DNA from: a virus
Virus record (IMG/VR): IMGVR_UViG_3300025120_000020
DNA length: 64,000 nucleotides
Reading direction: 5' to 3' (one strand)
Below, piece after piece: positions 8,679 to 46,578 of this stretch. A program made the position numbers and the translations under genes. Every line of letters begins with the position of its first letter. The stretch's first letter is position 1. A model generated the notes under the pieces. It searched no databases. It worked only from the letters and a program-made list of their open reading frames with translations, and was not told the origin of the DNA.

Positions 8679-10640
8679 CTAAATTTTAGTTGAGTGATGC
8701 AAAATCGCAGCAGACATGTCATCGAGCTGATGTTTAGCGCCTACATCCAACACATCTGGATCAACATTTAATTCAGAAAGATTATCTAAATTTTCCACAA
8801 CACTTGATAAAGTCTCATCCCATTCATCTACTGACTTAGAAACAATAATTGACTCACAAGCGCGAGAAACTAAATCTTTTTTATCATCATCAAGTTCATC
8901 CAAGCCAAACTTAAGAGCAAAGTCACGATAAGCTCTAAGTTCAAATTCGCTAACCATTTGGGTAGCTTCAACAATATGTTTCTTTGAAAAGCTTGAGTTA
9001 GAGACTCCAATAGGACGACCACCAGAAGGCGCAATAGGGGCCACTTCTGGTTTAGCGTCTGGAACAGAATCTTCTTCGTTTTGGTAAAGGTTAATGCTGT
9101 TTACAAGTGGCATGTAATAACCTTCTTCCCTCTGCTCTTTGAACTTATCTTGTGCATCTCCCATATCTTCAGATTTTGGAAAGATTCCAGTGTTGATAAC
9201 TTCCATGCCTTGCTGAGGAGTAAGAACTCCAAGCTCCATCATGCGAGTAGCAAGCTTAGTCATGTCCGAATTATTAAGAGTATCAGTCTTAACAAAATTA
9301 ACCTCTGGCCAAGAACGCATTCCCGCATCTTTACAAATACGGCGTATCTCTGGTTGTAAGAAATCACGGATAAATTGGCTACGAGACTCTTCAAGGCGCT
9401 GAATGAATATCTTCATCTTTAGCTGCCCATCTGCATATTTGTTGTCTCCAAGGAGAACATTCTGAAGCCCCTCTTGAATGTCGCGGTTTAAAATCTCATA
9501 CTTTTCAGGGCCAATTACTTTACGAAGATCGGGAATAACAAAATCAGCTTTTGTGGTATAATCAGATACAAGAACACGCCCAACACTTTGATTCTTGAAG
9601 ATGTTTTGCATTGCAGCTAATGCTTTGTGATTAACTCCACCCTTGTCTGGCTCTGCACCCATAGTAACCAACAAAACAACATTCTCAATAGAACGAGAAA
9701 TGGCTTGGTCAATTTTCTTAAGCTCTAGTTTCTTATTGATGTCATCGAGGACAGAGAAAGCGTATGGAACAGAAAGTGGCTCATAGTCTTGCTTTTTAGC
9801 AAATACAACATGTAGTAGTTCTGAAGCTAATTTAATATACAAACGCTCAGTGGTAGTAGCGGTGTTGTTTTGAATTCTTACCTGAACATCTTCTGGCAAA
9901 GAATTATACATCTCAATCTCATGCTCTGTTTTAGGCTCTTTAAGTCTAGATATTTCATATGGAGTAAGGACTTTGAAATACTGAAAGTCATTAAAAGAAA
10001 TAGAACCTTTTGTAGCGATATCAGTTGGGTTTATGATCAAATACTTGATTGGAATGGGAACGCTCTTAGTAGCACCATAGGTTTCCAAGATCTTTCCAGT
10101 ATCAGCAGTTTTGATCTTACCATCAACACGATACATGAAAACATTGCCTGAACGATAGTATTCGCGGAAGTATTGTGACTTGATGTCATGAATTTTAATT
10201 CTTTTAAACCAAGCTTTTACAAAGTTTCTAGCTTTAGCAGATCCCCCTTCTAAAAATAACTCAGAGTCAGCGAAATCAGATAGCATGTCAATAGTGCTTC
10301 TGAAGGCAGGGACATTAAAGTAAGCTTTTTGACATAACTGGATTGCATCACGGACATTTACGGAGTCACGAGAGTAATCAAAAGGGAGTAGCCCATCGTC
10401 AATATTCTTGAACCTATTTTTAGTATAGCTTTGAGTAATGCTGTTAGTTCTTGAACTTGAGCGATTTGTTGGGTCAGAAAGACGAGACGCAGTAGTTTCA
10501 TATAAAGATTCTCCGACCAGCTCTGGAGAAAACTCCTCTGCTAAAGACTGATTGGTTATATCCTCTAAATTATGATTGAGAGTGTTGCTTTTGAACTTAT
10601 TCCAATATTCAGACCGTTTTGTATACTTACGCTTTGCCAT
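8679..10640 (-). CDS. Portal protein
   Basis: 653 aa between terminase and protease, with 'FREYYRSGNVF' portal-like segment and C-terminal GGRP. Confidence 0.8.
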   Translation of the reverse strand: MAKRKYTKRSEYWNKFKSNTLNHNLEDITNQSLAEEFSPELVGESLYETTASRLSDPTNRSSSRTNSITQSYTKNRFKNIDDGLLPFDYSRDSVNVRDAIQLCQKAYFNVPAFRSTIDMLSDFADSELFLEGGSAKARNFVKAWFKRIKIHDIKSQYFREYYRSGNVFMYRVDGKIKTADTGKILETYGATKSVPIPIKYLIINPTDIATKGSISFNDFQYFKVLTPYEISRLKEPKTEHEIEMYNSLPEDVQVRIQNNTATTTERLYIKLASELLHVVFAKKQDYEPLSVPYAFSVLDDINKKLELKKIDQAISRSIENVVLLVTMGAEPDKGGVNHKALAAMQNIFKNQSVGRVLVSDYTTKADFVIPDLRKVIGPEKYEILNRDIQEGLQNVLLGDNKYADGQLKMKIFIQRLEESRSQFIRDFLQPEIRRICKDAGMRSWPEVNFVKTDTLNNSDMTKLATRMMELGVLTPQQGMEVINTGIFPKSEDMGDAQDKFKEQREEGYYMPLVNSINLYQNEEDSVPDAKPEVAPIAPSGGRPIGVSNSSFSKKHIVEATQMVSEFELRAYRDFALKFGLDELDDDKKDLVSRACESIIVSKSVDEWDETLSSVVENLDNLSELNVDPDVLDVGAKHQLDDMSAAILHHSTKI

Positions 10641-10686
10641 GCTAACAATTGTTACACTAAAGTTATAAAAGTTACTTTACAACTTT

Positions 10687-12579
10687 TCAAATAGTAAACG
10701 GTATAAATGTAGACTCAGGTTTTTTCTCAGGAGTTACATTAAGAGAATCAAAATAAACTTTGGCGAACCAATTCCCTAGAATCAAAGCAGAATAAGAGTC
10801 TTTTCGTGCTCTATTCGGCCCCTTCTGTCTTCGGATGTTTTGGGGCAAGTTAAACGACTGTGAACCTTGGGGGTTGGTAGTAACCTCAATGTTAGCACAT
10901 TCTGACTTTGTAAGTTCAATGTTAGTTTTCTGTTGGTCAATAAGATCAATCATTTTTGCTCCTTTAGAAGTGGCTGTAATTTTATTATCCCACTTTATCT
11001 CATCAATTGGTAAATTACCTTTTCTTTGTCGGTCGAAGTGGTCGTCCACCGCTCTGGAGCCAAACAGTATTCTTTTATGGTCTATCGCTGCTTGCAACAT
11101 TTCATTACCACTTCTAATCCAATTGACTGTAGGTTTTCTTAAGACACAATATTTTCTCTCCTTTTGGTTATATTGGCTCTTAAATTGTGTGATGTCACTA
11201 TGCCATTGATCAGGTTTTTCTAAATCGACTTCAATCACTCCAATATTCACACTAGCCTTTTTAAACAACTCACTCTCATTACAAGAGTTGATGAACTGAA
11301 CTCCTCCATTGTAGTCACCGCATATACCCACGATATTAAAGTATTGAATAAGATACAGAAAATACCTCATATGCTCTTTTAAGGATACTCCAGCCACTGC
11401 GTAGCTATGAACAAGGCAAATCTTCTGTTCGTCCCCCAGAACCTTAAATACATGCATTGCGAAGTGGTCAGCGCTTGTGTTACCAGCCCAGTTGGGGTCA
11501 AAAGCAAGAATATATTCGTCACTTGGGTTTCCAATTACTTCAACAGCAGGAAACTCTCCATCAGCAATAGTGCAAGCTGCCATTTTAGATAATCTGAAAT
11601 AACCATCACTCTCATCTACAAATTGTGCGCCGAACTCTCGTTTAAACTGCATCTCAGACATAGTGGCCTTCGCCTGTTTAAGCAGGTTCTGATCGTAAAG
11701 TCTTGTCGGAGCACAGTCGTAACTTAATTGCATAATTAATCTATATGCATCATCAGCCGCTTGTTCTTCATCATCATTATCTCTGTCGAACTCTCCGAAG
11801 ATAAGACCCTCATACTTTTTGTAGAGTTTATACATATATTCGAATTTGAATGACGGAGATGAAAGTATTATCAACTTGTTATTTGGCCATACATACCTAT
11901 CATTCTCTTTCAGCTCGCCCTTGTCGATAAGGCGGGATTCTAGTTTATGTAGTTCCTCCCTTTCAATAGGATTCTCTACAACTCCAAGGAATGGTATGAT
12001 AACTTCATTGAATATCTTTTCTGGTATTGTTAAGAACTCATCTAACACTATCCTATTAAATCGAAATCCACGAAGTCGTTCTCCGTTAGCTAATGGCAAA
12101 GCTATTGCGCGACTATTATTAATTTTCAAAGTCCACTGGTCAGTTCCTTTTGTTATTTTAACTCCACATTCTTTTGCGAGCTTTGCCTCTGGCTTACAAA
12201 GGATATCTTCCATCTTCTGGAAGATTTGTTTTGACTGCCTAAAGCTACCTGCAATAACACCTATATTTGCATTAGGGTTTAACAAACATTCAAGTAACAC
12301 ATAAATGGCTGTAGAGAAAGTCTTAGACATACCACGGGAGAATACGAACATTGAATAGTCCGATACCATCATCCCTTTGATGGCCATAGCCTGAAATGGG
12401 AATAACTTTACCCCCAAAAATAATTCGGAGGTAAATGCAATATTAGCTCTTAAAAACTTATATAATAAATACTTAGCTTCCTCGTCAGGCAAGTCGCCAT
12501 CAAGTGTTTTTAAATATGTATTAAGCTCGTTCGCGGAATAATCATTTCGATACCGCTGTTTTCCTTTCTGCCATGCCAT
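10687..12579 (-). CDS. terL: Terminase large subunit (#1)
   Basis: Q-motif LFPFQ, Walker A SRGMSKT, LRGFR, Walker B IVLDE, coupling motif LSSP, nuclease LAFDP and KDSYSA. Confidence 0.9.
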   Translation of the reverse strand: MAWQKGKQRYRNDYSANELNTYLKTLDGDLPDEEAKYLLYKFLRANIAFTSELFLGVKLFPFQAMAIKGMMVSDYSMFVFSRGMSKTFSTAIYVLLECLLNPNANIGVIAGSFRQSKQIFQKMEDILCKPEAKLAKECGVKITKGTDQWTLKINNSRAIALPLANGERLRGFRFNRIVLDEFLTIPEKIFNEVIIPFLGVVENPIEREELHKLESRLIDKGELKENDRYVWPNNKLIILSSPSFKFEYMYKLYKKYEGLIFGEFDRDNDDEEQAADDAYRLIMQLSYDCAPTRLYDQNLLKQAKATMSEMQFKREFGAQFVDESDGYFRLSKMAACTIADGEFPAVEVIGNPSDEYILAFDPNWAGNTSADHFAMHVFKVLGDEQKICLVHSYAVAGVSLKEHMRYFLYLIQYFNIVGICGDYNGGVQFINSCNESELFKKASVNIGVIEVDLEKPDQWHSDITQFKSQYNQKERKYCVLRKPTVNWIRSGNEMLQAAIDHKRILFGSRAVDDHFDRQRKGNLPIDEIKWDNKITATSKGAKMIDLIDQQKTNIELTKSECANIEVTTNPQGSQSFNLPQNIRRQKGPNRARKDSYSALILGNWFAKVYFDSLNVTPEKKPESTFIPFTI

Positions 12580-13495
12580 GAACTTTTTTCTCTAAATGAT
12601 ATTGAACGTCAACGTGCCATAGACGTTGCCCGTGATGTAGTATCTTGGGGATAATCTTCTTCGCCCCCGCTCTTGAGTAAGCAAAAACAAACTGTATGTT
12701 TTCTGGGTAGTCTATCATCAGACTACGAACATTGTGCCACAAGTAACCTAAATTCGATTTGAACTTTGATACTTTGTTTTCTTCCTCGATTTTTTTAATA
12801 GACGACTCGACAACAATGAACATGTAAGAATTAAACTGGACACAACGATCCATTTCGCGCCTGAATCTTTTAATATCTTTTCCGAAAGTTTGTCTAAAAT
12901 CATCTTGAGCTTTTCTATCTACAAAGGTTTTTGAGTAGTATTCTCCAGCAGCAGTATAATCACCGAAGTCTAACTTGTTCTTTACACTATTATCGAAGTT
13001 AAGGGGCTTTTGTTCTCTAGTATCCACGAATATCTGCATGTCTTTACTTTCTTGCTCCCAGAAGTTTTTAGGTAAATTCTTAGTAAACCAAGATTTTATT
13101 CCCAAGTCCTCAGAGAACTCAGAGTAAGACCTCCACATTTTGCGGTAGTAATCTATATTAGGCATTTGAGCCAGCATGTAATATAAGTCTGGTGGAGTAA
13201 ACTTTACATCCTTATTTTTAAATCTTTCGCGAGTGTAATTGATTAAGTGATTTTTTGCTTTGATAGGAGAGGTTGTCTTTAACCAAGATAAATAATTATC
13301 TACATTGTTAAAGTCTTCTGAAAAATATTGGTCGTAGTTTTTGAATTGTAGTAATTCGTTTGTGTAAAGATCTCGTTTGCCATAGTATTCCACATAATAT
13401 TCCCCAATGGAAGTGCTATGAGCTTTAAGGTGGGCGTGAAAGCTTCTACGATTATCGAAGGACTTACCACATACTCTGCAAACAAATTCACTCAT
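12542..13495 (-). CDS. C2H2 zinc finger plus ERCC4/XPF-type nuclease
   Basis: CRVC...HLKAH zinc finger; VDTREQ, LDFGDY and VDRKAQDD match the ERCC4 GDxnERKxxxD pattern. Confidence 0.75.
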   Translation of the reverse strand: MSEFVCRVCGKSFDNRRSFHAHLKAHSTSIGEYYVEYYGKRDLYTNELLQFKNYDQYFSEDFNNVDNYLSWLKTTSPIKAKNHLINYTRERFKNKDVKFTPPDLYYMLAQMPNIDYYRKMWRSYSEFSEDLGIKSWFTKNLPKNFWEQESKDMQIFVDTREQKPLNFDNSVKNKLDFGDYTAAGEYYSKTFVDRKAQDDFRQTFGKDIKRFRREMDRCVQFNSYMFIVVESSIKKIEEENKVSKFKSNLGYLWHNVRSLMIDYPENIQFVFAYSRAGAKKIIPKILHHGQRLWHVDVQYHLEKKVHGMAERKTAVSK

Positions 13496-14550
13496 AACAA
13501 CTCTTTTTTAGATATACCAAGCACTCGTGCTTTATAGTCATCCATATTCTCTAGTCTATCAGCCTCTTCTTCAATTAATTTGTTTTGAAGTTCAGCCATC
13601 ATGATCATACGGTCTCTTTCTTCACGATCTTGAAATGCTTCTACCAGAGCAAAGATAGATCCATTTTCTTCACCTTTAGCTTTCAGTCTTGCGGTTCTAG
13701 ATCCATTCAAGTCTTTCGTTAGGGATTCGATGCGCTTCTCGCACTGGTTAAGCTCTTCGCTGGTGGCCTTGATAATCTCCGTCAGACGCATTGTGATGTC
13801 CCTTTCGTTGTCTTGGTCGTCTAGTAGTGCATTAAGCTTGTCAATACGCATCTGGATGTGTTTCTGGCGCACGTAGTTAGCACATACGGTCACATATAGA
13901 TTCAATTCGTCGTTAGTGAGGTCAGGCTTGTCCCAAATAGCACGGACGAACTCACTTTCGAATAAATTTCTGTCAGCTAGAGTTGAATACTGATTAATAA
14001 AATGATTGAAGCGAGGGCTTTTAAAATAAAGAATTAATTGCTCTACTAGTTTCTTTTGTTTTGTTTGGAGGGTTAGTTCTTCTAGGGTAGCTCCACAGAA
14101 GTTGTTTATCTTAACAATTGCTCTGTTTATAGACTTGGGAGGAGTCCACTTCTCTTTTGTAACAATTTCGTTATCGTCTACAATCTCTGGCCGATAAGTT
14201 TTTAAGAAATCGACAATAACCCTGTGCTTCATGCTCAAGGGTTGAACGTCACGGTCTTTGAAGGTGAGTCGGGCAATTTCTAGTGCATTCATCCCAACTT
14301 CAATATTGTCAGTCATCAAGAACTCTTTTTGTTCCCTATTTAGATGAACCTGCTCTACTTTCGGGGCAAGTGATGTATTTGCTTTTTTGTCTTGTCCAGC
14401 TAAGAACTTCCTCACTGCACGGCCCTGTTTCGATCTCCCATCAATATCCTCGTCATTGAATACTTTGCGGGTAATAAACATCAAATCGGGGTTTGTTTTA
14501 AACAATTTAAGAATTTCCTCTTTCTGCTCTTCTGTTAAATCATATATCAT
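13492..14550 (-). CDS. Hypothetical coiled-coil protein (terminase small subunit candidate)
   Basis: 352 aa, helical, two genes upstream of TerL. Confidence 0.4.
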   Translation of the reverse strand: MIYDLTEEQKEEILKLFKTNPDLMFITRKVFNDEDIDGRSKQGRAVRKFLAGQDKKANTSLAPKVEQVHLNREQKEFLMTDNIEVGMNALEIARLTFKDRDVQPLSMKHRVIVDFLKTYRPEIVDDNEIVTKEKWTPPKSINRAIVKINNFCGATLEELTLQTKQKKLVEQLILYFKSPRFNHFINQYSTLADRNLFESEFVRAIWDKPDLTNDELNLYVTVCANYVRQKHIQMRIDKLNALLDDQDNERDITMRLTEIIKATSEELNQCEKRIESLTKDLNGSRTARLKAKGEENGSIFALVEAFQDREERDRMIMMAELQNKLIEEEADRLENMDDYKARVLGISKKELL

Positions 14551-15227
14551 TATATATCCTCCTCTTTTACTAACTTAGCTGCTATATTGTAAAACTTCTT
14601 CTTCAGGTTGTTTATTTGTTTGTATCTAGGTGTCTTTCTTCTACTTGTATCTCGCTTGAACCCAAACTTCTTAGCAACCTCTGCTTCATCTACGTGATCT
14701 ATAAACAAAAGCTTATATATCTCTTTATGCTTGTCGTTTAACTCAGCCATAACCAAAAGATGTATCTTGGACGTTTTCTTATCATAGTCCAATTCATCTT
14801 CATTTATTCTATCTTTAACCGATATTAAAGCATCTAAAGAGACTGGCATCTTTAAATGAAACGCGCTTTGTTTTTTATTCTTCCATTTAGCGAAGTCCCC
14901 ACACTCTTCGTCCTGCTCCTTGCTTTTAGTAAAGCTACACTCATCTCCACCTAAATAAAAAGAACACCGCAAACACGGTTTAGCGAAGTTCCCATAATGA
15001 TTCCTTATCAGATTCTTTATCTGATTACTAATCAACATAGAAGCCCAAGGCTTAAATGCTCTCTTCTGATCCCACAAATGCCACTTTTTATAGATATGAG
15101 TGCGGATTATTTGAGATACATCATCATAATCCAACCAAGCTATGGAATTAAGTTGCCACTTGGTTCTATACCTACTTAAAAGTTCTTCTATCTCTGGAAT
15201 AAGGTCTTCATACCTTTTATCCATCAA
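14550..15227 (-). CDS. Phage sigma-70/ECF-like factor with a Cys-rich insertion
   Basis: Region-2-like YDDVSQ...FKPWASMLISNQIKNLIR and region-4 HTH EAEVAKKFG; CxxC...C...C lies between them. Confidence 0.7.
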   Translation of the reverse strand: MMDKRYEDLIPEIEELLSRYRTKWQLNSIAWLDYDDVSQIIRTHIYKKWHLWDQKRAFKPWASMLISNQIKNLIRNHYGNFAKPCLRCSFYLGGDECSFTKSKEQDEECGDFAKWKNKKQSAFHLKMPVSLDALISVKDRINEDELDYDKKTSKIHLLVMAELNDKHKEIYKLLFIDHVDEAEVAKKFGFKRDTSRRKTPRYKQINNLKKKFYNIAAKLVKEEDI

Positions 15228-15591
15228 TGTCTTGAATTCTAGATGAAGCGCAATCAGCTTGGCTCTGTTTAATCATAGCGTCACCCTCGGGCAAATTTGC
15301 TGCTGGCCTAGAAGTCCTACTCCTATTGGCATCTTCAGGAGTGGCAGATTTCCAGAGATCAGTTAATGTAGTGTTCTGCGAGCTAGCTTCTGCTACAATG
15401 TCTCTCTTCATTTTTTTCAAATCAAAGGAACGAGGACTCTCTTCCTCATAATCAATTTCAGCAACAGCTTCTCGTCGAGCTGGCGCGGGTGCTGCCGCTC
15501 CAATCGACGAACCACACGCCGAACAAAACTTGGGTTTGGTCACCTCATACACGTTTTTTTGACCGCAGGATGAACAGAAAACTTTATTCAT
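15217..15591 (-). CDS. Zinc-ribbon protein
   Basis: FCSSCG...KFCSACG. Confidence 0.65.
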   Translation of the reverse strand: MNKVFCSSCGQKNVYEVTKPKFCSACGSSIGAAAPAPARREAVAEIDYEEESPRSFDLKKMKRDIVAEASSQNTTLTDLWKSATPEDANRSRTSRPAANLPEGDAMIKQSQADCASSRIQDIDG

Positions 15592-15599
15592 ATGAAATT

Positions 15600-16274
15600 T
15601 TATTGATTTGGGGCTAATAATTCAATTTTTTCTACAAGATATGTAATAATTTTATCTCTTATCACATCTTCCTTACTAAACTCTACACTATGCACCCCTT
15701 TTTTGGAACTTTGCTCGTCTTTAAACAAATTAGCCAACTTAGTAAACCCACTACTCCTAATGTCACTCTGCAAACTATCCCCACACACAAATAACCTACT
15801 GCCACGACCAATCCTTGTAAGCACAGTAGTCAACTCTCTCACACTCATATTCTGAGCCTCATCCACAATCACAATCTTATCCCGCCAAGTGCATCCGCGC
15901 AAAAAGTTAATCGGCTCCGCTTCTAATACTCTTTTGTTTTTTAACTGGTCTTTCTCTGGCTTGTTCAATAACTCGTCAATCTTATCAAGTAACGGAGCCA
16001 TATATGGCCCAAACTTATCATCCATATCACCTTTCAGAAAACCTATCCCCCTATCCGCACTCTCCACAACACTACGCAAATACAATATTTTTAAGTTTTT
16101 GTCGTTATTATACAAATCTAAGGCACTATAAACAGAAAGAAATGTCTTAGCCGTTCCTGCTGGCCCACCCAGAAATACAATCCGAGTATTGTTGTCTGAC
16201 ATTATGTCATAGAATTCTTTTTGTTTTTTTGTTAATTCAATATGACCCAATAACAAGCTGCTGTCTTTTATCAT
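15600..16274 (-). CDS. phoH: PhoH-family ATPase
   Basis: GPAGTAKT, GFLKGD, FLRGCT, IVDEAQN, LTRIG, GDSLQSD. Confidence 0.93.
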   Translation of the reverse strand: MIKDSSLLLGHIELTKKQKEFYDIMSDNNTRIVFLGGPAGTAKTFLSVYSALDLYNNDKNLKILYLRSVVESADRGIGFLKGDMDDKFGPYMAPLLDKIDELLNKPEKDQLKNKRVLEAEPINFLRGCTWRDKIVIVDEAQNMSVRELTTVLTRIGRGSRLFVCGDSLQSDIRSSGFTKLANLFKDEQSSKKGVHSVEFSKEDVIRDKIITYLVEKIELLAPNQ

Positions 16275-16499
16275 TTCTTTTTATTTATTACACGGGTTTA
16301 GCTTTTGTTTTGTTTTATTCTGTGGCGCACCGCCACTTTTAATATGAAAAATAACTTCTTTATAGTGTTCACCACCCCCCGCGCTGTATGCGTCAAGCAC
16401 AAAAGTCAAAAAGTTTCAGAAAACCCCTCCCCTAAAAAAAAATACATTTATATGCAGAAAAAGCTTTTTGTTTACCCTGATCTGTGATAAAATACACGC

Positions 16500-16775
16500 A
16501 TGGCAACGATATACTTCTCAGGAGGAAAAGCGAAACACGCAAACGAAATCAAGAGTTTCGTCATCATCTCGAAAACCGCTGAAGGCAAAGAGGTTGTTTG
16601 GGGCGAGACCACAAACACTAAAACAGTTGAGAAATTGAGAAGTGGTCAACACTGGGCTTTCCCCGAAGGGAAGTTCGTTCGCGTCGAGGAGTTTGAGAAC
16701 GCAAAGGCTTCTTGGGCTTCCAAGCATGGAGAAAGGCTGGAACTTCTTTATGGTCGCAACTCCCGACCCCGTTAA
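16500..16775 (+). CDS. Hypothetical early protein (leaderless)
   Basis: First gene after the strand switch, with TAAAAT 6 nt before the ATG. Confidence 0.6.
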   Translation: MATIYFSGGKAKHANEIKSFVIISKTAEGKEVVWGETTNTKTVEKLRSGQHWAFPEGKFVRVEEFENAKASWASKHGERLELLYGRNSRPR

Positions 16776-16804
16776 AAAAAGTTTTCTTTTTATACGAAAA
16801 GAGC

Positions 16805-16833
16805 TTGCACCAATCAGAAAAATAAAGTAGAAT
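16805..16833 (+). promoter_or_regulatory. Sigma70-type promoter, leaderless transcript
   Basis: TTGCAC-17 nt-TAGAAT, then 6 nt, then ATG at 16840. Confidence 0.75.
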
Positions 16834-16839
16834 TCACAC

Positions 16840-17031
16840 ATGACCGCAACCGAAGAAGCACTAGCAGCAATGGCAAAAGCAGAAGCAGGATGGGACAAAT
16901 TAGCAGAGGAGACCGTTGAGGTTTCTGGCCAGTTCCAGAAAGAATGCCAAGAGTTCCGAAAAGAGCAAAGGGAATGGTTCCTTGAAAATGTGCCTGACCA
17001 GCCGAAGCAAGACCCTAGATTCCTAGCCTAA
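16840..17031 (+). CDS. Hypothetical protein, paralog of 19298-19450
   Basis: Shared AM.KAE..WDK.....EVSGQFQKECQE. Confidence 0.7.
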   Translation: MTATEEALAAMAKAEAGWDKLAEETVEVSGQFQKECQEFRKEQREWFLENVPDQPKQDPRFLA

Positions 17032-17058
17032 AAAATAACAAGTAAGAAAACTACCATT

Positions 17059-17283
17059 ATGAATCTCCACAATTTCAAATATCAGTCCCCAATGGGGAAA
17101 GCAATCTTGATTCTCACCTATCCCATTCTCTTCCCTCATCACATTGGGGAGTTGATGCGTGAGCGAAAGTTGAAGCGAATTATCCGCAAGGGCATCGCGG
17201 ATGCATGCAAAGAGCCGCAGGGCGTGACTGCGGAAATCGTCAACGAAGCCTCGTGCGAACTCCGCATGATTTACGGCAAGTAA
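17059..17283 (+). CDS. Hypothetical protein
   Basis: 74-aa ORF directly upstream of the mini-tmRNA. Confidence 0.55.
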   Translation: MNLHNFKYQSPMGKAILILTYPILFPHHIGELMRERKLKRIIRKGIADACKEPQGVTAEIVNEASCELRMIYGK

Positions 17284-17289
17284 AAAGTT

Positions 17290-17355
17290 GGGTGGCCAAT
17301 GGTTTCGACGGGACGCGAGTCTCGGATGGGGGTTCGATCCCCCCGCCATCCACCA
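17290..17355 (+). ncRNA. ssrA-like: Mini-tmRNA: tRNA-like domain only, no mRNA/tag domain
   Basis: Acceptor GGGTGGC/GCCATCC with G3-U70, A73 and encoded CCA; stemless D-loop with GGTTTCGAC; helix CGGGAC-GCGA-GTCTCG; GAT; T-arm GGGGG-TTCGATC-CCCCC. Confidence 0.85.
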
Positions 17356-17403
17356 AAAAAAATACTTGACACGTTGAGTTTTTATGTTATAAAAAAAATC
17401 GCT

Positions 17404-17480
17404 CTAACTAACTGAGTATCAACGAGTTACGGGGAAGCGCCCCGCCCCCGCCCGTAACTGACTGAGTATCAACGACTTAC
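17404..17480 (-). repeat. 77-bp bipartite palindromic element E1 (GC box C-rich on +)
   Basis: CTAACTAACTGAGTATCAACGAGTTAC / GGGGAAGCGCCCCGCCCCCGCCC / GTAACTGACTGAGTATCAACGACTTAC (27/23/27). Confidence 0.95.
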
Positions 17481-17596
17481 GAAGGTTTTTTCTATATCAA
17501 AACAAGCCATCGTGTCAAGCCCTTTTAAATAAAAAAAAGATTAAATATATGCAGAAAAAGCTTTTCTTTTGTGAGATTCTCCTGTATACTATGCCC

Positions 17597-17842
17597 ATGT
17601 CCGACACTACTACATCACCAACGTTCCGCACCTACAAGACCAAGCATCTGATTCTCTCGGTCTACCGCACGGGAATGACTTACTTGCACATCTCTGTAAA
17701 AAATAGCCAGTGGAGTCGCTATAAGTTCCAAGCTATCACCCGCGAGCAAGCAGCTAAAGCCCTCCTTGATATCCGCGCAGCCAAACGCGCAGCCAAGAGA
17801 GTAGAGGCCGAAGCCCTTGTTTCTGTCGCTTCTTACCTCTAA
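17597..17842 (+). CDS. Hypothetical early protein
   Basis: Start reassigned to MSDTTTS, 6 nt after TATACT. Confidence 0.6.
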   Translation: MSDTTTSPTFRTYKTKHLILSVYRTGMTYLHISVKNSQWSRYKFQAITREQAAKALLDIRAAKRAAKRVEAEALVSVASYL

Positions 17843-17898
17843 AAAAGATCAAAATAATCCTTGCACCAACCCCAAATCTAGACTATAATTCTCTCGTT

Positions 17899-18234
17899 AT
17901 GAAAAACACCACTACCACTACCACCACCCGCTTCGATCACGCCCTCTATGGACTCAGTGACGAAGACCTCAAGACTAAGCTCACCAATCGCGTGGTGACT
18001 TACTTCAACAGCGACGAATCCTCTGTCAAAAATGACGGCGTTCGTCAGTTCGTGATCAAGTCAATCGACTACACTGGTCACGCCAAAGGATCGGGTCGTC
18101 GCTACATCCAAGGCGAGGTTCAAGACCTCGACGATGGAGGCAAGACCAAGTTCCGCACTCTGCACGTTGCAGGGATCGAAAAGGTGAAAGGTCGCGTGGC
18201 GACCGCTTACCAGCTAGCCAAATCAGTTTTCTAA
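17899..18234 (+). CDS. Hypothetical protein (SH3/WYL-like?), paralog of 18879-19097
   Basis: TTGCAC-17-TATAAT promoter at 17861-17889; C-terminal FRTLHVAGIEK versus FRTLYFSRIEK. Confidence 0.65.
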   Translation: MKNTTTTTTTRFDHALYGLSDEDLKTKLTNRVVTYFNSDESSVKNDGVRQFVIKSIDYTGHAKGSGRRYIQGEVQDLDDGGKTKFRTLHVAGIEKVKGRVATAYQLAKSVF

Positions 18235-18248
18235 TGGTGTGTGTGTCT

Positions 18249-18286
18249 ACCCGTCAGTCTCTTCGGAGGCTGGCGGGTTTTTTTTT
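18249..18286 (+). terminator. Intrinsic terminator
   Basis: ACCCGTCAGTCTC-TTCG-GAGGCTGGCGGGT followed by a T tract. Confidence 0.85.
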
Positions 18287-18341
18287 GATTTATATGCAAA
18301 AAGATCTTGCGCGTGATTCTTTTTTCGAGTATACTATCGGC

Positions 18342-18569
18342 ATGGCAACAGTAACACAAAACCACTTAGCAGACTTAGCATATCAAGCAGGACTCCGAGG
18401 TCATGAGAGTATCACCTGCCCCCGTTCATACCTTGGCTGGGTAATCCCAGAAATGTTCGAAGATGGAGCGATGGCCTTCGGGATCTGGAGGCACTTCTGG
18501 GCAGAGGGTGAGCGGGTCGAGAGGGAAGCTTGCGCTCGCGATTACGATGACAGTCGATTGGATTACTAA
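18342..18569 (+). CDS. Hypothetical early protein (leaderless)
   Basis: TTGCGC-17-TATACT, 6 nt, then ATG (MATVTQNH); terminator follows. Confidence 0.65.
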   Translation: MATVTQNHLADLAYQAGLRGHESITCPRSYLGWVIPEMFEDGAMAFGIWRHFWAEGERVEREACARDYDDSRLDY

Positions 18570-18584
18570 TCCGCACCACACAAG

Positions 18585-18609
18585 GCTCCCGAAAGGGAGC
18601 TTTTTTTTT
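18585..18609 (+). terminator. Intrinsic terminator
   Basis: GCTCCC-GAAA-GGGAGC followed by T9. Confidence 0.9.
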
Positions 18610-18668
18610 GAATTAAATTAATCTTTTGTGTTGACATCCGCGAGAAAACAGTTAATAAAAAAATCCTC

Positions 18669-18745
18669 CTAACTCACTGAGTATCAAGGAGTTGCGGGCG
18701 GGGGCGGGGCCGTGGCCCCTAACTCGTTGAGTATCAAGGACTTAC
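18669..18745 (+). repeat. 77-bp element E2 (G-rich on +)
   Basis: CTAACTCACTGAGTATCAAGGAGTTGC / GGGCGGGGGCGGGGCCGTGGCCC / CTAACTCGTTGAGTATCAAGGACTTAC. Confidence 0.95.
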
Positions 18746-18878
18746 AACGTTTTTTTCTTTATAGTAAACAAGGAGAGAGTCAAGCCTAAAAATAAAAATA
18801 AATGCTGTCTGACAGATTAAAAAAAGATTAAAATACATGCAGAAAAACCTTTTAATCTCTGAGTTTTTAGAGTAAAAT

Positions 18879-19097
18879 ATGCACATGACCAACCAAGACA
18901 ACATCACCCGCCTGATCAAGAAGCAGTTTGTTTACACCACTTCTAACAATGGAAATCTTCGCATGTATCAACTTCGCGGGGTTGAGCATTCCACCAAGGA
19001 CTTCGCAGTTTGTAAAGTGGTTGACGTAAGTCACGACAGCAAGACGGGCGACGAGGAAATTTTCAGAACTCTCTACTTCTCACGCATAGAAAAATAA
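18879..19097 (+). CDS. Hypothetical protein, paralog of 17899-18234
   Basis: Shared C-terminal motif; the real start is probably the ATG at 18885, 6 nt after TAAAAT. Confidence 0.6.
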   Translation: MHMTNQDNITRLIKKQFVYTTSNNGNLRMYQLRGVEHSTKDFAVCKVVDVSHDSKTGDEEIFRTLYFSRIEK

Positions 19098-19163
19098 TTA
19101 AAAAAACATTTAAAAAGGGCTTGCGCCCATCCCCCAAATCCTTTATACTCCCCCCAGTAAGAA

Positions 19164-19277
19164 AGCTCTATAGTTTAAAAAGTAAAACATTCTCCACGGC
19201 CTCTCCAATCATAAGCCACCGCAACCCAAATGGTTCGGGCGAGAAAGACAAAGGTGCAATTCCTTTTAGAGCAACCA
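19164..19277 (+). ncRNA. tRNA-like RNA with a 46-nt expanded anticodon loop
   Basis: Acceptor (A)GCTCTA/TAGAGC(A)-A-CCA; D-arm GTTT/AAAC; stem TTCTC/GAGAA; T-arm AAAGG-TGCAATT-CCTTT; own promoter TTGCGC-17-TATACT at 19121-19149. Confidence 0.75.
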
Positions 19278-19297
19278 ATTTTCCAGACACAAACACT

Positions 19298-19450
19298 ATG
19301 AACTTATCAAAAGAATCACAGGAAGCAATAGAAGCAATGAAGAAGGCCGAAGAGAATTGGGACAAGATGGTTGCTAGAGCTTCCGAGGTCTCAGGTCAAT
19401 TCCAGAAAGAGTGCCAAGAGTTGAAAGTTGAATTGGAGGAATTAAAATAG
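19298..19450 (+). CDS. Hypothetical protein, paralog of 16840-17031
   Basis: MNLSKESQEAIEAMKKAEENWDK...; the ORF-track 5' extension overlaps the tRNA-like RNA and is unlikely. Confidence 0.65.
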   Translation: MNLSKESQEAIEAMKKAEENWDKMVARASEVSGQFQKECQELKVELEELK

Positions 19451-19454
19451 AGTC

Positions 19455-19652
19455 ATGAAAGAAGAAAAAAATCCACTCCTCGCGAGTGCTGAAACCGCTT
19501 TAGCTTTTGAAGAAGCAATGAAAGAATACATCGCGGAGCTTGAGGTTGATGGTGTAGTTAGTTACAGCCACTTTACTTTGCGCCGTTTACATAATCGTTT
19601 TGGCAGGGAAGCTGTCCAAGGATGGCTGAATAATCACTTTGATAATAAATAA
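19455..19652 (+). CDS. Hypothetical protein
   Basis: 65-aa ORF in a tight operon. Confidence 0.5.
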   Translation: MKEEKNPLLASAETALAFEEAMKEYIAELEVDGVVSYSHFTLRRLHNRFGREAVQGWLNNHFDNK

Positions 19653-19653
19653 A

Positions 19654-20379
19654 ATGAAAAAACTCCTAATCATCACACTGCTTGCTGTATCAGTTTACTT
19701 CTTTCAGGAGGCTGGCAAAGTGGCCAATAAAGAAAAACAAGTAAAGGTTACCCCGACGACTGTCGAGATTCAGAAGCAAGCCGCGCCTGAGATTGTTAAA
19801 ACATGGCAAGCACCCGTGCTTGTTAAGCCAAAGCGTTTTTACAAGAGAGACAAGAAAGAAGATCTAGTTCCTGTTCTTGTTAGACCTAAAAAATCCTACA
19901 GGGTCGAAGAGGTTAAAAAAGAAATCAAAAAAGAAATCTCTGCTTGGGATAAAATGTTTTCTAAAGTAAAACACTACGAGAGTTTTAAGTCTAAAGCGTA
20001 TCGTTGCAGTGGTGGAGTCATGACTATCGGCTATGGCCATACCAAAAATGTTAGATGGGGCGACACTATCACAGAATCAGAAGCAGTGAAACTGTTAGAA
20101 GAAGAATTACTTGTTGCTAAAAATCATGTGATGAGAATTGTAAAAGTTCCATTGACCGAAAATCAATTGGCATCACTCACAAGTTTTACTTTTAACTGTG
20201 GTCAAGGTTCACTAAGCAAATTGGTCTGTGAAAAAAAGAATAGACTCAATAATGGAAACTATAAAAGCGTTGAGGTGGTCATGCCTCAATATAGAATGGC
20301 AGCGGGGAAAATCCGAAAAGGTTTGGAGCTTCGGAGAAAATGGGAAGTTTCTTTGTGGCGTGATAAAAATTCACTATAA
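19654..20379 (+). CDS. GH24 phage lysozyme with an N-terminal signal/anchor
   Basis: HYESFKSKAYRCSGGVMTIGYGHT (E-x8-C-x5-T triad), LTSFTFNCG, GLELRRKWE; MKKLLIITLLAVSVYFF leader. Confidence 0.9.
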   Translation: MKKLLIITLLAVSVYFFQEAGKVANKEKQVKVTPTTVEIQKQAAPEIVKTWQAPVLVKPKRFYKRDKKEDLVPVLVRPKKSYRVEEVKKEIKKEISAWDKMFSKVKHYESFKSKAYRCSGGVMTIGYGHTKNVRWGDTITESEAVKLLEEELLVAKNHVMRIVKVPLTENQLASLTSFTFNCGQGSLSKLVCEKKNRLNNGNYKSVEVVMPQYRMAAGKIRKGLELRRKWEVSLWRDKNSL

Positions 20380-20392
20380 TAAAAAAAACTCT

Positions 20393-20469
20393 GTAAGTCG
20401 TTGAACGTCAAGGAGTTACGAGCGGGGGCGGGGCCAATGGCCCTAACTCGTTGAGCATCAGTGACTTAG
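20393..20469 (+). repeat. 77-bp element E3 (G-rich on +)
   Basis: GTAAGTCGTTGAACGTCAAGGAGTTAC / GAGCGGGGGCGGGGCCAATGGCC / CTAACTCGTTGAGCATCAGTGACTTAG. Confidence 0.95.
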
Positions 20470-20487
20470 AAGGTTTTTTAATTTTAG

Positions 20488-20960: not shown

Positions 20961-21197
20961 ATGACAGTTCAAAATCCTATTGCTGATAGTCTCGCCCCGA
21001 TGAATGAAACAGACTTACGCGACATGCTCGATGATGGACCTCGCGCTGGCAACTTTAACCCCACGCCCGAAGTAGTGGGAGAGTTGCTCGCGCAGATCCA
21101 AAACGATATGGGTGATCGTAACCCCGAATGGTCTTCTGATGATGGCCTCTCACCCGCAGACGCGCAAGCTCTTCAAAATCACCTCGACGGAGAATAA
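20961..21197 (+). CDS. Small acidic hypothetical protein (leaderless)
   Basis: TTGACG-17-CATACT, 6 nt, then ATG; very Asp/Glu-rich. Confidence 0.65.
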   Translation: MTVQNPIADSLAPMNETDLRDMLDDGPRAGNFNPTPEVVGELLAQIQNDMGDRNPEWSSDDGLSPADAQALQNHLDGE

Positions 21198-21206
21198 AAA
21201 ATCGTT

Positions 21207-21283
21207 TTAACTCCTTGAACGTCAAGGAGTTGCGGCAAAGCCCCCCGCCCCGCCCCGTAAGTCGTTGATAATCAGTGACTTAC
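21207..21283 (-). repeat. 77-bp element E4 (C-rich on +)
   Basis: TTAACTCCTTGAACGTCAAGGAGTTGC / GGCAAAGCCCCCCGCCCCGCCCC / GTAAGTCGTTGATAATCAGTGACTTAC. Confidence 0.95.
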
Positions 21284-21473
21284 GGGGTTTTTCTCTTTAT
21301 CATAAAGCTGGGGGGGATGTCAAGCTTATTTGTTAAAATATTTGGCATTGTTAGCGCAAAAAAAATCACTTTTAATGCAAAAAAGGTATTGCGCTTCACA
21401 AAAAAATGGTTTAGACTCTCACCAGTTCAGAGGCAGTTCTCTGACAGTTAACCAACTAGAAACTACTACTACT

Positions 21474-22419: not shown

Positions 22420-22499
22420 TTTTCATCGTGGTCGATAGCGTAACCTCGTCCCCTCTGCATGGGGGGCGGGGTTTTTCTTTTCTAATAATAAAAAACGCT

Positions 22500-22576
22500 G
22501 TAAGTCGTTGAGTATCAATGAGTTACGGGCGGGGGCGGGGCCGCGCCCCGTAAGTCGCTATCGTTCAGTGGCTTAT
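22500..22576 (+). repeat. 77-bp element E5 (G-rich on +)
   Basis: GTAAGTCGTTGAGTATCAATGAGTTAC / GGGCGGGGGCGGGGCCGCGCCCC / GTAAGTCGCTATCGTTCAGTGGCTTAT. Confidence 0.95.
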
Positions 22577-22649
22577 GAAGATTTTTTTAAATTAAAAAAA
22601 CATTAAAAAGGCTTGTTTTGAAATCAAATTCTGTCAGAATACTCTCGTT

Positions 22650-23346
22650 ATGGAACAAGAGATACCAACAATCAGATTGACAGGACATTTCAATAAAACC
22701 TTCAGTGTTAAAAAGGAGGAGAAGGCTTACAAGGGCTTAGAATATTCCATTGAATGGGATTTTGATAAGAAGAAAACCCGCATCCCGATTTCGACACACG
22801 GTGCGATTGAACTATCAGAAGTGTTTGATAAGCTAGGCTTCACACAAATTCACCGCGAAAGCTAAAACCATGACAATAGAAGTAGAAAGAAAAGAAGTTT
22901 ACGGTAATACTCTGACTTATGTGAAAAAAGAATCTGTCAGGAATTCCATAAAGAAACTAACAGGAAGAAAAACTTTAACCGACTACGACGTTGAAGCTCT
23001 TAAAGAGTTGGGATTTGTCTTGGTCATTGAACAAGTAACAGAAAGAATTTAAATTATGATTAAAGAACACACAATGCCATGCATCCACATGAATGGATCG
23101 GGAGAGACCAGCCTACGCAGACAATACAACGAATTGTTTGAAGCTGTAAGCGAGGCGCAAATTAAACTGCTTTTTGATACAGACTTCCATCAAAGGGATT
23201 ACTACCCTCTTGGGGATGAAGCTTGGGATAAAGCTTATCAAGAAAGAGAAGAGGTTAAGAAGGCAATGAATACAGTCTATCAATATGCGAAGCAGCATAT
23301 GCACTTCCTTGAATATGGAAAGGAGCCATTGCCAGATGAGCATTAA
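22650..23346 (+). CDS. Cassette of three small hypothetical genes (22650-22865, 22870-23052, 23056-23346)
   Basis: Tightly spaced ORFs between E5 and E6 behind one promoter. Confidence 0.55.
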
Positions 23347-23359
23347 ATAAAAATATCTC

Positions 23360-23436
23360 CTAAGTCATTGAATATCAGTGGCTTAGGGGCAAGCCCCCCG
23401 CCGCGCCCCGTAACTCCTTATCAATCAGTGAGTTAC
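23360..23436 (-). repeat. 77-bp element E6 (C-rich on +)
   Basis: CTAAGTCATTGAATATCAGTGGCTTAG / GGGCAAGCCCCCCGCCGCGCCCC / GTAACTCCTTATCAATCAGTGAGTTAC. Confidence 0.95.
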
Positions 23437-23548
23437 GAGGTTTTTTTCTATATACGAAAAAACTAATAGTGCAAGCTCAAAATAAAATAATAAAAAACAT
23501 TAAAAAAGCCTTGTCTCGCAGGAAAAATCCTGTCAGAATACTCTCGTT

Positions 23549-28051: not shown

Positions 28052-28582
28052 TTATTCTGTATCTTTCAATCTGCTTATGTGCATATTATACATGTTTGCA
28101 TGAACTGTAAAGCCATTAGACGGATCTACATCTCCTTTTTTCCAGAATTTAGCCTTCTCAAAATATTCTTTTTTAGGCATAAAGCCACATAACCATATAG
28201 ATTCTACCCCGTGATAAGTAGCACTACGCCCTTTGCCCCGCTTCTCCTTAAATGTAATAGAAATAAATGCGTAAGTATCTGCCTTTTGATGCTTGCTAGT
28301 CTCAGCTATAGATACTTCATAAGAAGGTCTTGGGTCAACAGTTCTTCTTTTGGTCTTGACATCTATTTTTAAATCATTTTTTATTAGATCATAGTTGTAT
28401 TTCTCGTTACCTTCGTCACAAGAAACATTATTGCACTGCAAATCTTCAGCTAAAGCTATCTCAGCCAAGTATCCAGCCAAGTTACCACCTCCCGAAGTGA
28501 TAGAATTATTTATAGAACCTAGATTTTTTGCCTTTTTAACAGCCTCATCTATCATTGACTGATTAAATTTTAATTTTCTCAT
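28052..28582 (-). CDS. PD-(D/E)XK-like nuclease/hypothetical protein
   Basis: GYLAE...YDL...IDVKT. Confidence 0.55.
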   Translation of the reverse strand: MRKLKFNQSMIDEAVKKAKNLGSINNSITSGGGNLAGYLAEIALAEDLQCNNVSCDEGNEKYNYDLIKNDLKIDVKTKRRTVDPRPSYEVSIAETSKHQKADTYAFISITFKEKRGKGRSATYHGVESIWLCGFMPKKEYFEKAKFWKKGDVDPSNGFTVHANMYNMHISRLKDTE

Positions 28583-46414: not shown

Positions 46415-46578
46415 AAAAAGGACTATACGCAAATATTCATGCAAAGCGGAAGCGAATCAAAGCCGGTTCCGGGGAAAAAATGAGAAAACCCGGCAGTAAA
46501 GGCTCTCCCTCGGACAAAGAATTTAAGGACTCTGCCAAGACGGCGAGAAAAATTCCTGTCAAAAAGGCCATGTATTAG
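46411..46578 (+). CDS. Small basic protein (GLYANIHAKRKRI type)
   Basis: Read manually; homologous to the C-terminus of 39409-39936. Confidence 0.7.
   Translation: MKKGLYANIHAKRKRIKAGSGEKMRKPGSKGSPSDKEFKDSAKTARKIPVKKAMY

Follow-up and report, generated by a model that had tools for sequence, protein, structure and literature searches.

Bacteria rescue stalled ribosomes mainly by trans-translation. Some phages carry genes of the tmRNA family; those of the cluster C mycobacteriophages (for example, Bxz1) and of Bacillus phage G are full-length and keep the tag frame, which is also kept in the phage-borne two-piece ssrA of Melnitz and the pelagimyophages (PMC4131195, PMC9004378). Where they have been studied, full-length phage tmRNAs are expressed early or at a high level (PMC7474061, PMC9004378). 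One phage RNA stands apart, as it is listed as ‘Mycobacterium phage DS6A (TLD only)’, TLD being the tRNA-like domain (PMC4131195; tmRNA Website tmID 11587). In the literature consulted, the phage tmRNAs described besides that of DS6A are full-length only. Crystal structures show the TLD bound to SmpB at a ratio of 1:1, and it is this domain of tmRNA that is crucial for SmpB binding (PMC3022190). According to the passages of PMC4131195 and PMC11915505 that cite Mao et al. (2009), a DS6A-like TLD strongly inhibited Escherichia coli tmRNA whether or not it was chargeable, and the passage in PMC4131195 offers titration of SmpB as a possible cause. Outside phages, tmRNAs that lack the coding sequence (CDS-less) occur in the mitochondria of jakobids and oomycetes (RF02544) and in the plastids of Mallomonadaceae, where they are ~65 bp in length (PMC11915505).

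Here we describe a gene of 66 nt for a TLD-only tmRNA (mini-tmRNA) at 17290–17355 on the plus strand of IMGVR_UViG_3300025120_000020, a 64,000-nt stretch of DNA (hereafter, the window) that is phage DNA throughout. A reading of the sequence alone had proposed both the sequence and the layout of this element, and both are exact. The 5′ strand of a 7-bp acceptor stem (GGGUGGC, including G3 of the G3:U70 pair; 17290–17296) pairs with 17345–17351. It is followed by a stemless D-loop analogue (CAAUGGUUUCGA; 17297–17308), the GGxUUCGAC motif of which aligns to the Rfam consensus GGaUUCGAC and runs straight into helix 2a. This helix is a stub (CGGGAC/GUCUCG; 17309–17324) that is closed by GCGA (17315–17318) in both the Rfam alignment and the predicted fold, and it stands in for the entire mRNA and pseudoknot domain. 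A linker (GAU), which together with the preceding G forms the GGAY motif, leads into a canonical T arm (GGGGG-UUCGAUC-CCCCC; linker and arm, 17325–17344) that aligns to the consensus cGGACGcGGGUUCGAuUCCCgCC. The RNA ends with the acceptor 3′ strand (GCCAUCC), the discriminator A73 and an encoded CCA (17345–17355). As read from the sequence, the alanine identity set (7-bp acceptor stem, G3:U70, A73 and 3′ CCA) is present in full.

The Rfam tmRNA model (RF00023) aligns to the element across model positions 1–374 at 48.1 bits (E = 6e-16 in the 64-kb window), which is a marginal pass of the gathering score of 47 bits. The GGxUUCGAC, GGAY-linker and T-arm (GGUUCGAnnCC) consensus motifs are all aligned, and 312 interior model positions are deleted, with the 4-nt GCGA loop in their place. 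The match upholds the sequence-only reading of a complete, phage-encoded alanine-type TLD without the mRNA and tag domain. Some variants of the same family reach only 43.5 bits with RF00023; R1, a covariance model of our own, scores the window copy at 94.6 bits. The window has no second match to RF00023 and no match to the alpha, beta, cyano and mitochondrial tmRNA families. ARAGORN, which had been suggested as a further check, made no call and reported no tag. The minimum-free-energy fold has the same three helices (acceptor, helix 2a stub and T stem); however, the fold energy is ordinary for the base composition (z = −1.0), so that support for the element comes from homology and comparative data and not from thermodynamics.

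The sequence-only reading had further indicated that no described phage equivalent was known, a claim that falls with the DS6A RNA (PMC4131195, PMC11915505). We located the latter at 28478–28560 of JN698994 (83 nt; 43.2 bits with RF00023 versus 48.1 bits for the window RNA). Both RNAs are phage-encoded and non-permuted, with a G3:U70 acceptor stem, a stemless D-loop, a helix 2a stub and a T arm, and neither has a tag frame or pseudoknots. The DS6A RNA has a longer helix 2 with an internal hairpin, does not encode its CCA, is GC-rich and adjoins DNA polymerase III in an actinobacterial phage of the temperate type, whereas the 66-nt window RNA has a 6-bp GNRA-capped stub and an encoded CCA and lies in a mosaic early cassette. 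There is no sequence similarity between the two outside the TLD core, and a blastn search of the 66 nt against cultured phages returned only short, insignificant T-arm matches and did not link the element to DS6A. The window RNA is a very compact new TLD-only tmRNA of the DS6A kind, a kind already published for one phage.

The window TLD aligns from end to end with the bacterial one-piece tmRNA (SsrA, RF00023), including the alanine identity and the motifs of the SmpB region. In contrast to SsrA, it has no resume codon, tag frame, stop codon, helix 5 or pseudoknots PK1–PK4 (312 of the 374 model positions) and therefore cannot carry out complete trans-translation. The mitochondrial CDS-less tmRNAs likewise consist of the TLD only, with no tag frame, and those of the Mallomonadaceae plastids are of the same size as the window RNA. 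Organellar forms, however, are vertical descendants of the organelle ssrA that have an imported SmpB, and most of the mitochondrial genes are permuted; the window RNA is an accessory phage gene that enters a cell in which a complete tmRNA is already present.

Other identities were considered and rejected. The element is not a tRNA-Ala, as it has neither a D stem nor an anticodon arm, is passed over by ARAGORN and is matched better by the tmRNA model than by the tRNA model within clan CL00001. It is not a complete SsrA, because the two TLD halves are separated by no more than a 6-bp stem and its 4-nt loop, with no tag and no pseudoknots. A two-piece (permuted) tmRNA is contradicted by the standard 5′-to-3′ order and by the lack of a separate coding piece in the window or in four related contigs. 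An att-site fragment of ssrA would not explain the 5′ acceptor strand and D-loop, both of which are present, and has no matching bacterial 3′ end: a scan of 185,579 species representatives with the T arm and acceptor 3′ end of the element returned only tRNA-Ala, other tRNAs and chance matches. As no bacterial tmRNA in that set ends with this acceptor and T arm, the element was not captured recently.

Pattern scans of IMG/VR and marine metagenome contigs recovered 82 instances in 16 variants (some contigs being counted in both collections), all exactly 66 nt in length; so many copies of the same 66-nt gene are far beyond chance. The acceptor and T stems are invariant across all 16 variants. The first scan left both acceptor strands free yet returned only invariant acceptors, and the invariance held in a wider second scan that left the acceptor 5′ strand and three of the five T-stem pairs free. 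Changes are confined to D-loop positions 8 and 9, the hairpin, its loop, the U/C position of the linker and the last base of the T loop. Double-sided changes occur at three of the six hairpin pairs, compared with none in every slid control: G-C to A-U at 21/34, G·U to A-U or C-G at 22/33, and C-G to U-A or U·G at 25/30. The commonest variant (27 of the 82 instances) has a G·G mismatch at pair 22/33, which weighs against the functional explanation favoured below. The loop is of the GNRA type in 15 of the 16 variants (GCGA, GCAA or GAAA), the other being ACGA in a single contig. Between contigs the element is 95–100% identical, compared with 57–96% for the 240 nt of coding sequence upstream, and it occurs in at least three downstream contexts. 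Judged from this comparison of sequences, the mini-tmRNA is a real gene under purifying selection and not a decaying one. The constant length, the compensatory changes and the conserved loop thus sustain the earlier suggestion of selection rather than decay, and the search for covariation in viral metagenomes that had been proposed with it found compensatory changes in the hairpin.

The form extends well beyond this family. A structural pattern scan of IMG/VR yielded, among the matches listed, at least about 24 further distinct TLD-only RNAs of 62–84 nt in unrelated phage contigs, so the TLD-only form is widespread among phage contigs. In the shortest of them, a stable tetraloop (GCGA, UUCG, CUCG or UAAG) closes helix 2. 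In an alignment of 27 distinct class sequences that was fitted to the model, and that therefore leans towards it, 98.3% of cells pair compared with 47–56% for slid partners, and there are 110 double-sided changes compared with 12–21 in the slid controls. G1-C72 and G2-C71 are near-invariant, and acceptor positions 4–7 covary freely. The G3:U70 pair was left free in the search pattern and is present in 26 of the 27 sequences; A73, CCA, the D-loop TTCGAC and the motif of the T loop were prescribed by the pattern, and their constancy is not evidence. Because mini-tmRNAs are missed by ARAGORN and are borderline for Rfam, they are probably under-annotated. The window lineage contributes to the wider class a GNRA-capped form that is very small (66 nt), comes from an abundant group of marine phages and has clean comparative evidence of selection. 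One complete phage genome of 123.6 kb that is unrelated to the window (IMGVR_UViG_3300025362_000004, here G005) carries both an 82-nt mini-tmRNA (46486–46567; 65 bits) and a full-length tmRNA of 392 nt (77588–77979; 94 bits).

Several class members have features of their own. G005 also contains many tRNA-like matches. A UAAA(A/G)CC-like motif lies within helix 2 of the mini-tmRNAs of ~80 nt in contigs L009, L021, L032, L050, L060, L070 and L090, and in-frame stop triplets occur in the 3′ strand of some RNAs of this size.

The phage of the window is marine and uncultured, and the mini-tmRNA belongs to its early region. The phage genome is ~135 kb, because a 67-kb relative is 49% complete (CheckV). 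The window encodes a terminase large subunit (TerL; 10687–12579, minus strand), PhoH, an endolysin and an ERCC4-type nuclease; the replication module, with a DnaB-type helicase, a primase and an SNF2 helicase, occupies the higher-GC part after ~42 kb. IMG/VR holds 203 contigs with a TerL that is 80–99% identical to that of the window, most of them marine by contig name. A megablast search of window positions 15000–20000 against the cultured-phage collection gave no match, and the best cultured-phage matches to TerL, in Bacillus phages, have ~25% identity.

Within the early region, the mini-tmRNA closes a short transcription unit of two ORFs at its 3′ end. A promoter-like site (TTGCAC-N17-TAGAAT; 16805–16833, plus strand), which we read from the sequence and which a consensus promoter scan did not list, is separated by 6 nt from the start codon at 16840 (ATG) and is the probable promoter of this unit. 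The first gene encodes 63 amino acids (16840–17031, plus strand) and is a paralogue of the ORF at 19298–19450. It is followed by an ORF of 74 amino acids (17059–17283, plus strand), the stop codon of which lies 6 nt before the mini-tmRNA; neither product belongs to a Pfam family. The 74-amino-acid ORF is the usual upstream neighbour of the mini-tmRNA but not an obligatory one, as it is replaced in contigs L073/L120 and L206. A second promoter-like site (TTGACA-N16-(TGt)TATAAA; 17366–17393, plus strand), also read from the sequence, has its TTGACA box beginning 10 nt past the CCA, and a scan of 17290–17400 found no terminator-like site between the mini-tmRNA and this next promoter-like site. 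In two places in the early region, −10-like hexamers (16488–16500 and 16828–16840) end exactly 6 nt before the ATG of an ORF, and no Shine–Dalgarno sequence is visible at either ORF; this spacing fits leaderless early mRNAs.

Among relatives defined by TerL, the structural module (window positions 10000–16468) is conserved in all, and the early region past 16468 is a mosaic of small cassettes between repeats of ~100 bp. The mini-tmRNA cassette is present in the window and in L114, L120, L121 and L136, and absent from L124, L129, L147 and L151, which have enough flanking sequence and TerL proteins that are 90–93% identical. Its absence from such close relatives indicates that the gene is dispensable. 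It had been asked whether relatives carry a full-length ssrA at this site, or whether a separate coding piece lies elsewhere in the genome. Searches with ARAGORN and our own covariance model found neither a full-length tmRNA nor a second piece in 79 TerL-relative loci. In four related contigs of 36–67 kb the mini-tmRNA is the sole RF00023 match and no coding piece accompanies it, the sequence searched for a full tmRNA or coding piece, window included, covering all but ~25 kb (about a fifth) of the ~135-kb genome. A search for SmpB in nine phage contigs, namely these four and five from phages of the wider class (two of the five being at least 92% complete), found no gene for it. One of the relatives, L120 (IMGVR_UViG_3300025132_000087), also has a paralogous cassette at 231–700 with a homologue of the 74-amino-acid ORF (~70% nucleotide identity) and, in the slot occupied by the mini-tmRNA in the window, a hairpin and T-run terminator.

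The function that we favour, to which we give an even chance of being correct, is that the mini-tmRNA competes with host tmRNA for SmpB and stalled ribosomes and thereby suppresses tagging. The gene would be transcribed early, as the last element of the short leaderless two-ORF unit, after which RNase P would cut the 5′ end and the tRNA 3′-end enzymes would trim the transcript to the encoded CCA. The RNA would then bind host SmpB. The host protein is the candidate partner because no SmpB was found in the DNA searched of this or other mini-tmRNA phages, and the mini-tmRNA depends on host SmpB if it uses SmpB at all. It would probably be charged with alanine by AlaRS and would then rival the full-length host tmRNA for SmpB, EF-Tu and non-stop ribosomes; as it lacks both a resume codon and a tag frame, it would on balance suppress ssrA tagging and trans-translation during infection. 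SmpB capture and inhibition of host tmRNA are proposed here by analogy with the published DS6A-type TLD. A mini-tmRNA would be a natural minimal ligand of SmpB, and a small, conserved phage RNA that plugs into trans-translation would amount to compact viral control of host protein quality control.

The conserved alanine identity pair sets this proposal against one in which the RNA helps the phage by working ribosomes, and provides a simple discriminator between models of a ‘sponge’ and of a charged participant. Sequestration of SmpB and rescue without a tag had both been put forward by the sequence-only reading, and they are still the leading two candidates. G3:U70 is near-universal in the class and needless for pure titration of SmpB, which points to a charged RNA that enters the ribosome and rescues it without a tag. 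In such a scheme, which we consider possible but on the whole unlikely, the alanine-charged mini-tmRNA with host SmpB and EF-Tu would enter a non-stop ribosome, accept the nascent chain and displace the broken mRNA; release would fall to host ArfB, ArfA–RF2 or peptidyl-tRNA hydrolase, or would follow further additions of alanine. In this way ribosomes would be returned to the phage, and the phage proteins would be spared the degradation tag. The persistence of G3:U70 in so divergent a class speaks for this scheme, as do the CDS-less tmRNAs that mitochondria retain together with SmpB and that also occur in some plastids, for which a helpful role is assumed (PMC11915505), and the mimicry of an aminoacyl-tRNA in the A site by an alanyl-TLD with SmpB (PMC3022190). 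The coexistence of mini and full-length tmRNAs in G005 suggests a distinct positive role and would be awkward for a pure inhibitor. However, the RNA alone, with neither a resume codon nor a stop codon, cannot terminate or release the ribosome; no gene for a release factor or hydrolase is seen beside the mini-tmRNA, the neighbours of which have no Pfam family; the constancy of A73 and CCA was imposed by the search pattern; and the only experiment cited in the relevant passage of PMC4131195 showed inhibition that was independent of chargeability. A more specific and rather improbable version is that mini-tmRNAs with host SmpB extend the chains on non-stop ribosomes by one or more untemplated alanines at the C terminus, early in infection. 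If true, this would explain both the retention of G3:U70 across dozens of divergent phage lineages and the paired full-length and mini forms of G005. The conserved pair suggests that charging matters and keeps the rescue and alanine-addition readings alive.

Two further explanations would place the RNA outside trans-translation. It could be a processing or stability element, with an RNase P site and a 3′ structure that end the upstream two-ORF mRNA; its position, 6 nt past a stop codon and last in a short unit that has no terminator of its own, suits this role, and so does the hairpin and terminator in the same slot of the paralogous L120 cassette. An acceptor and T-arm minihelix would nevertheless suffice for such a role, and the D-loop (GGUUUCGAC), GGAY and G3:U70 are invariant in the family. 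Class-wide, G3:U70 is again kept (the D-loop and T-loop motifs of the class were fixed by the pattern and carry no weight here). In the family, the sequence of the mini-tmRNA is retained while the gene upstream is swapped for different genes, and unrelated phages have mini-tmRNAs in a wide variety of contexts. We therefore regard a role in processing alone as improbable. That the element is a non-functional relic, whether a decayed captured ssrA, a derivative of tRNA-Ala or an att-site fragment of a tmRNA gene, is more improbable again: ssrA does often serve as a phage integration site, with fragments of the gene carried by the phage (PMC9004378), close relatives lack the element and its Rfam score is barely above the cut-off, but a relic would hardly retain a constant 66 nt, compensatory changes, a GNRA loop in 15 of 16 variants and a conservation above that of neighbouring coding sequence. 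Unlike an att fragment, the element has both the 5′ and 3′ TLD halves, precisely joined, and no tmRNA of a bacterial species representative ends with its acceptor and T arm; the tRNA model, for its part, is outscored by the tmRNA model within their clan. The constant length and the tmRNA-specific motifs, which do not vary, make both the processing-only role and the relic unlikely.

Small parts of the region 16300–18300 are contained in four marine RNA libraries, of a standard type from which a structured RNA of 66 nt would be lost. Contigs that touch 17328–17363 were rejected as transcripts of the mini-tmRNA because they run into an unrelated tRNA, the shared stretch being a foreign T arm. Other contigs from these libraries cover parts of the early ORFs at 17549–17842 and 17899–18234 with 0–2 differences, which fits transcription of these ORFs in the sea; carried-over DNA is also a possible source.

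The early region encodes a second tRNA-like RNA (19164–19277, plus strand), with 40.9 bits for the Rfam tRNA model. In place of an anticodon loop it has an insert of 45 nt; position 1:72 is a mismatch, the sequence of the T loop (UGCAAUU) departs from the canonical one, and the gene includes the CCA. Across at least 14 contigs in which the mini-tmRNA is also found, conservation of this second RNA is 85–99%, with a compensatory exchange in the D stem (GUUU/AAAC to GUCU/AGAC). Because one inner hairpin is exchanged for another between variants, the ‘CAU’ there is not a conserved anticodon. One of two paralogous orphan proteins lies beside each tRNA-like RNA (16840–17031 and 19298–19450, both on the plus strand), and the two share EVSGQFQKECQE. 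Pfam assigns no family to seven small ORFs of the early region, including three that adjoin the two tRNA-like RNAs. The repeats of ~100 bp that separate the early-gene cassettes (17391–17500, 18650–18760, 20380–20480, 21196–21300, 22480–22590 and 23345–23450) are partly palindromic, have 70–80% identity and occur in both orientations and in all relatives. The order of the cassettes between them varies from genome to genome, and the repeats may be recombination or termination modules.
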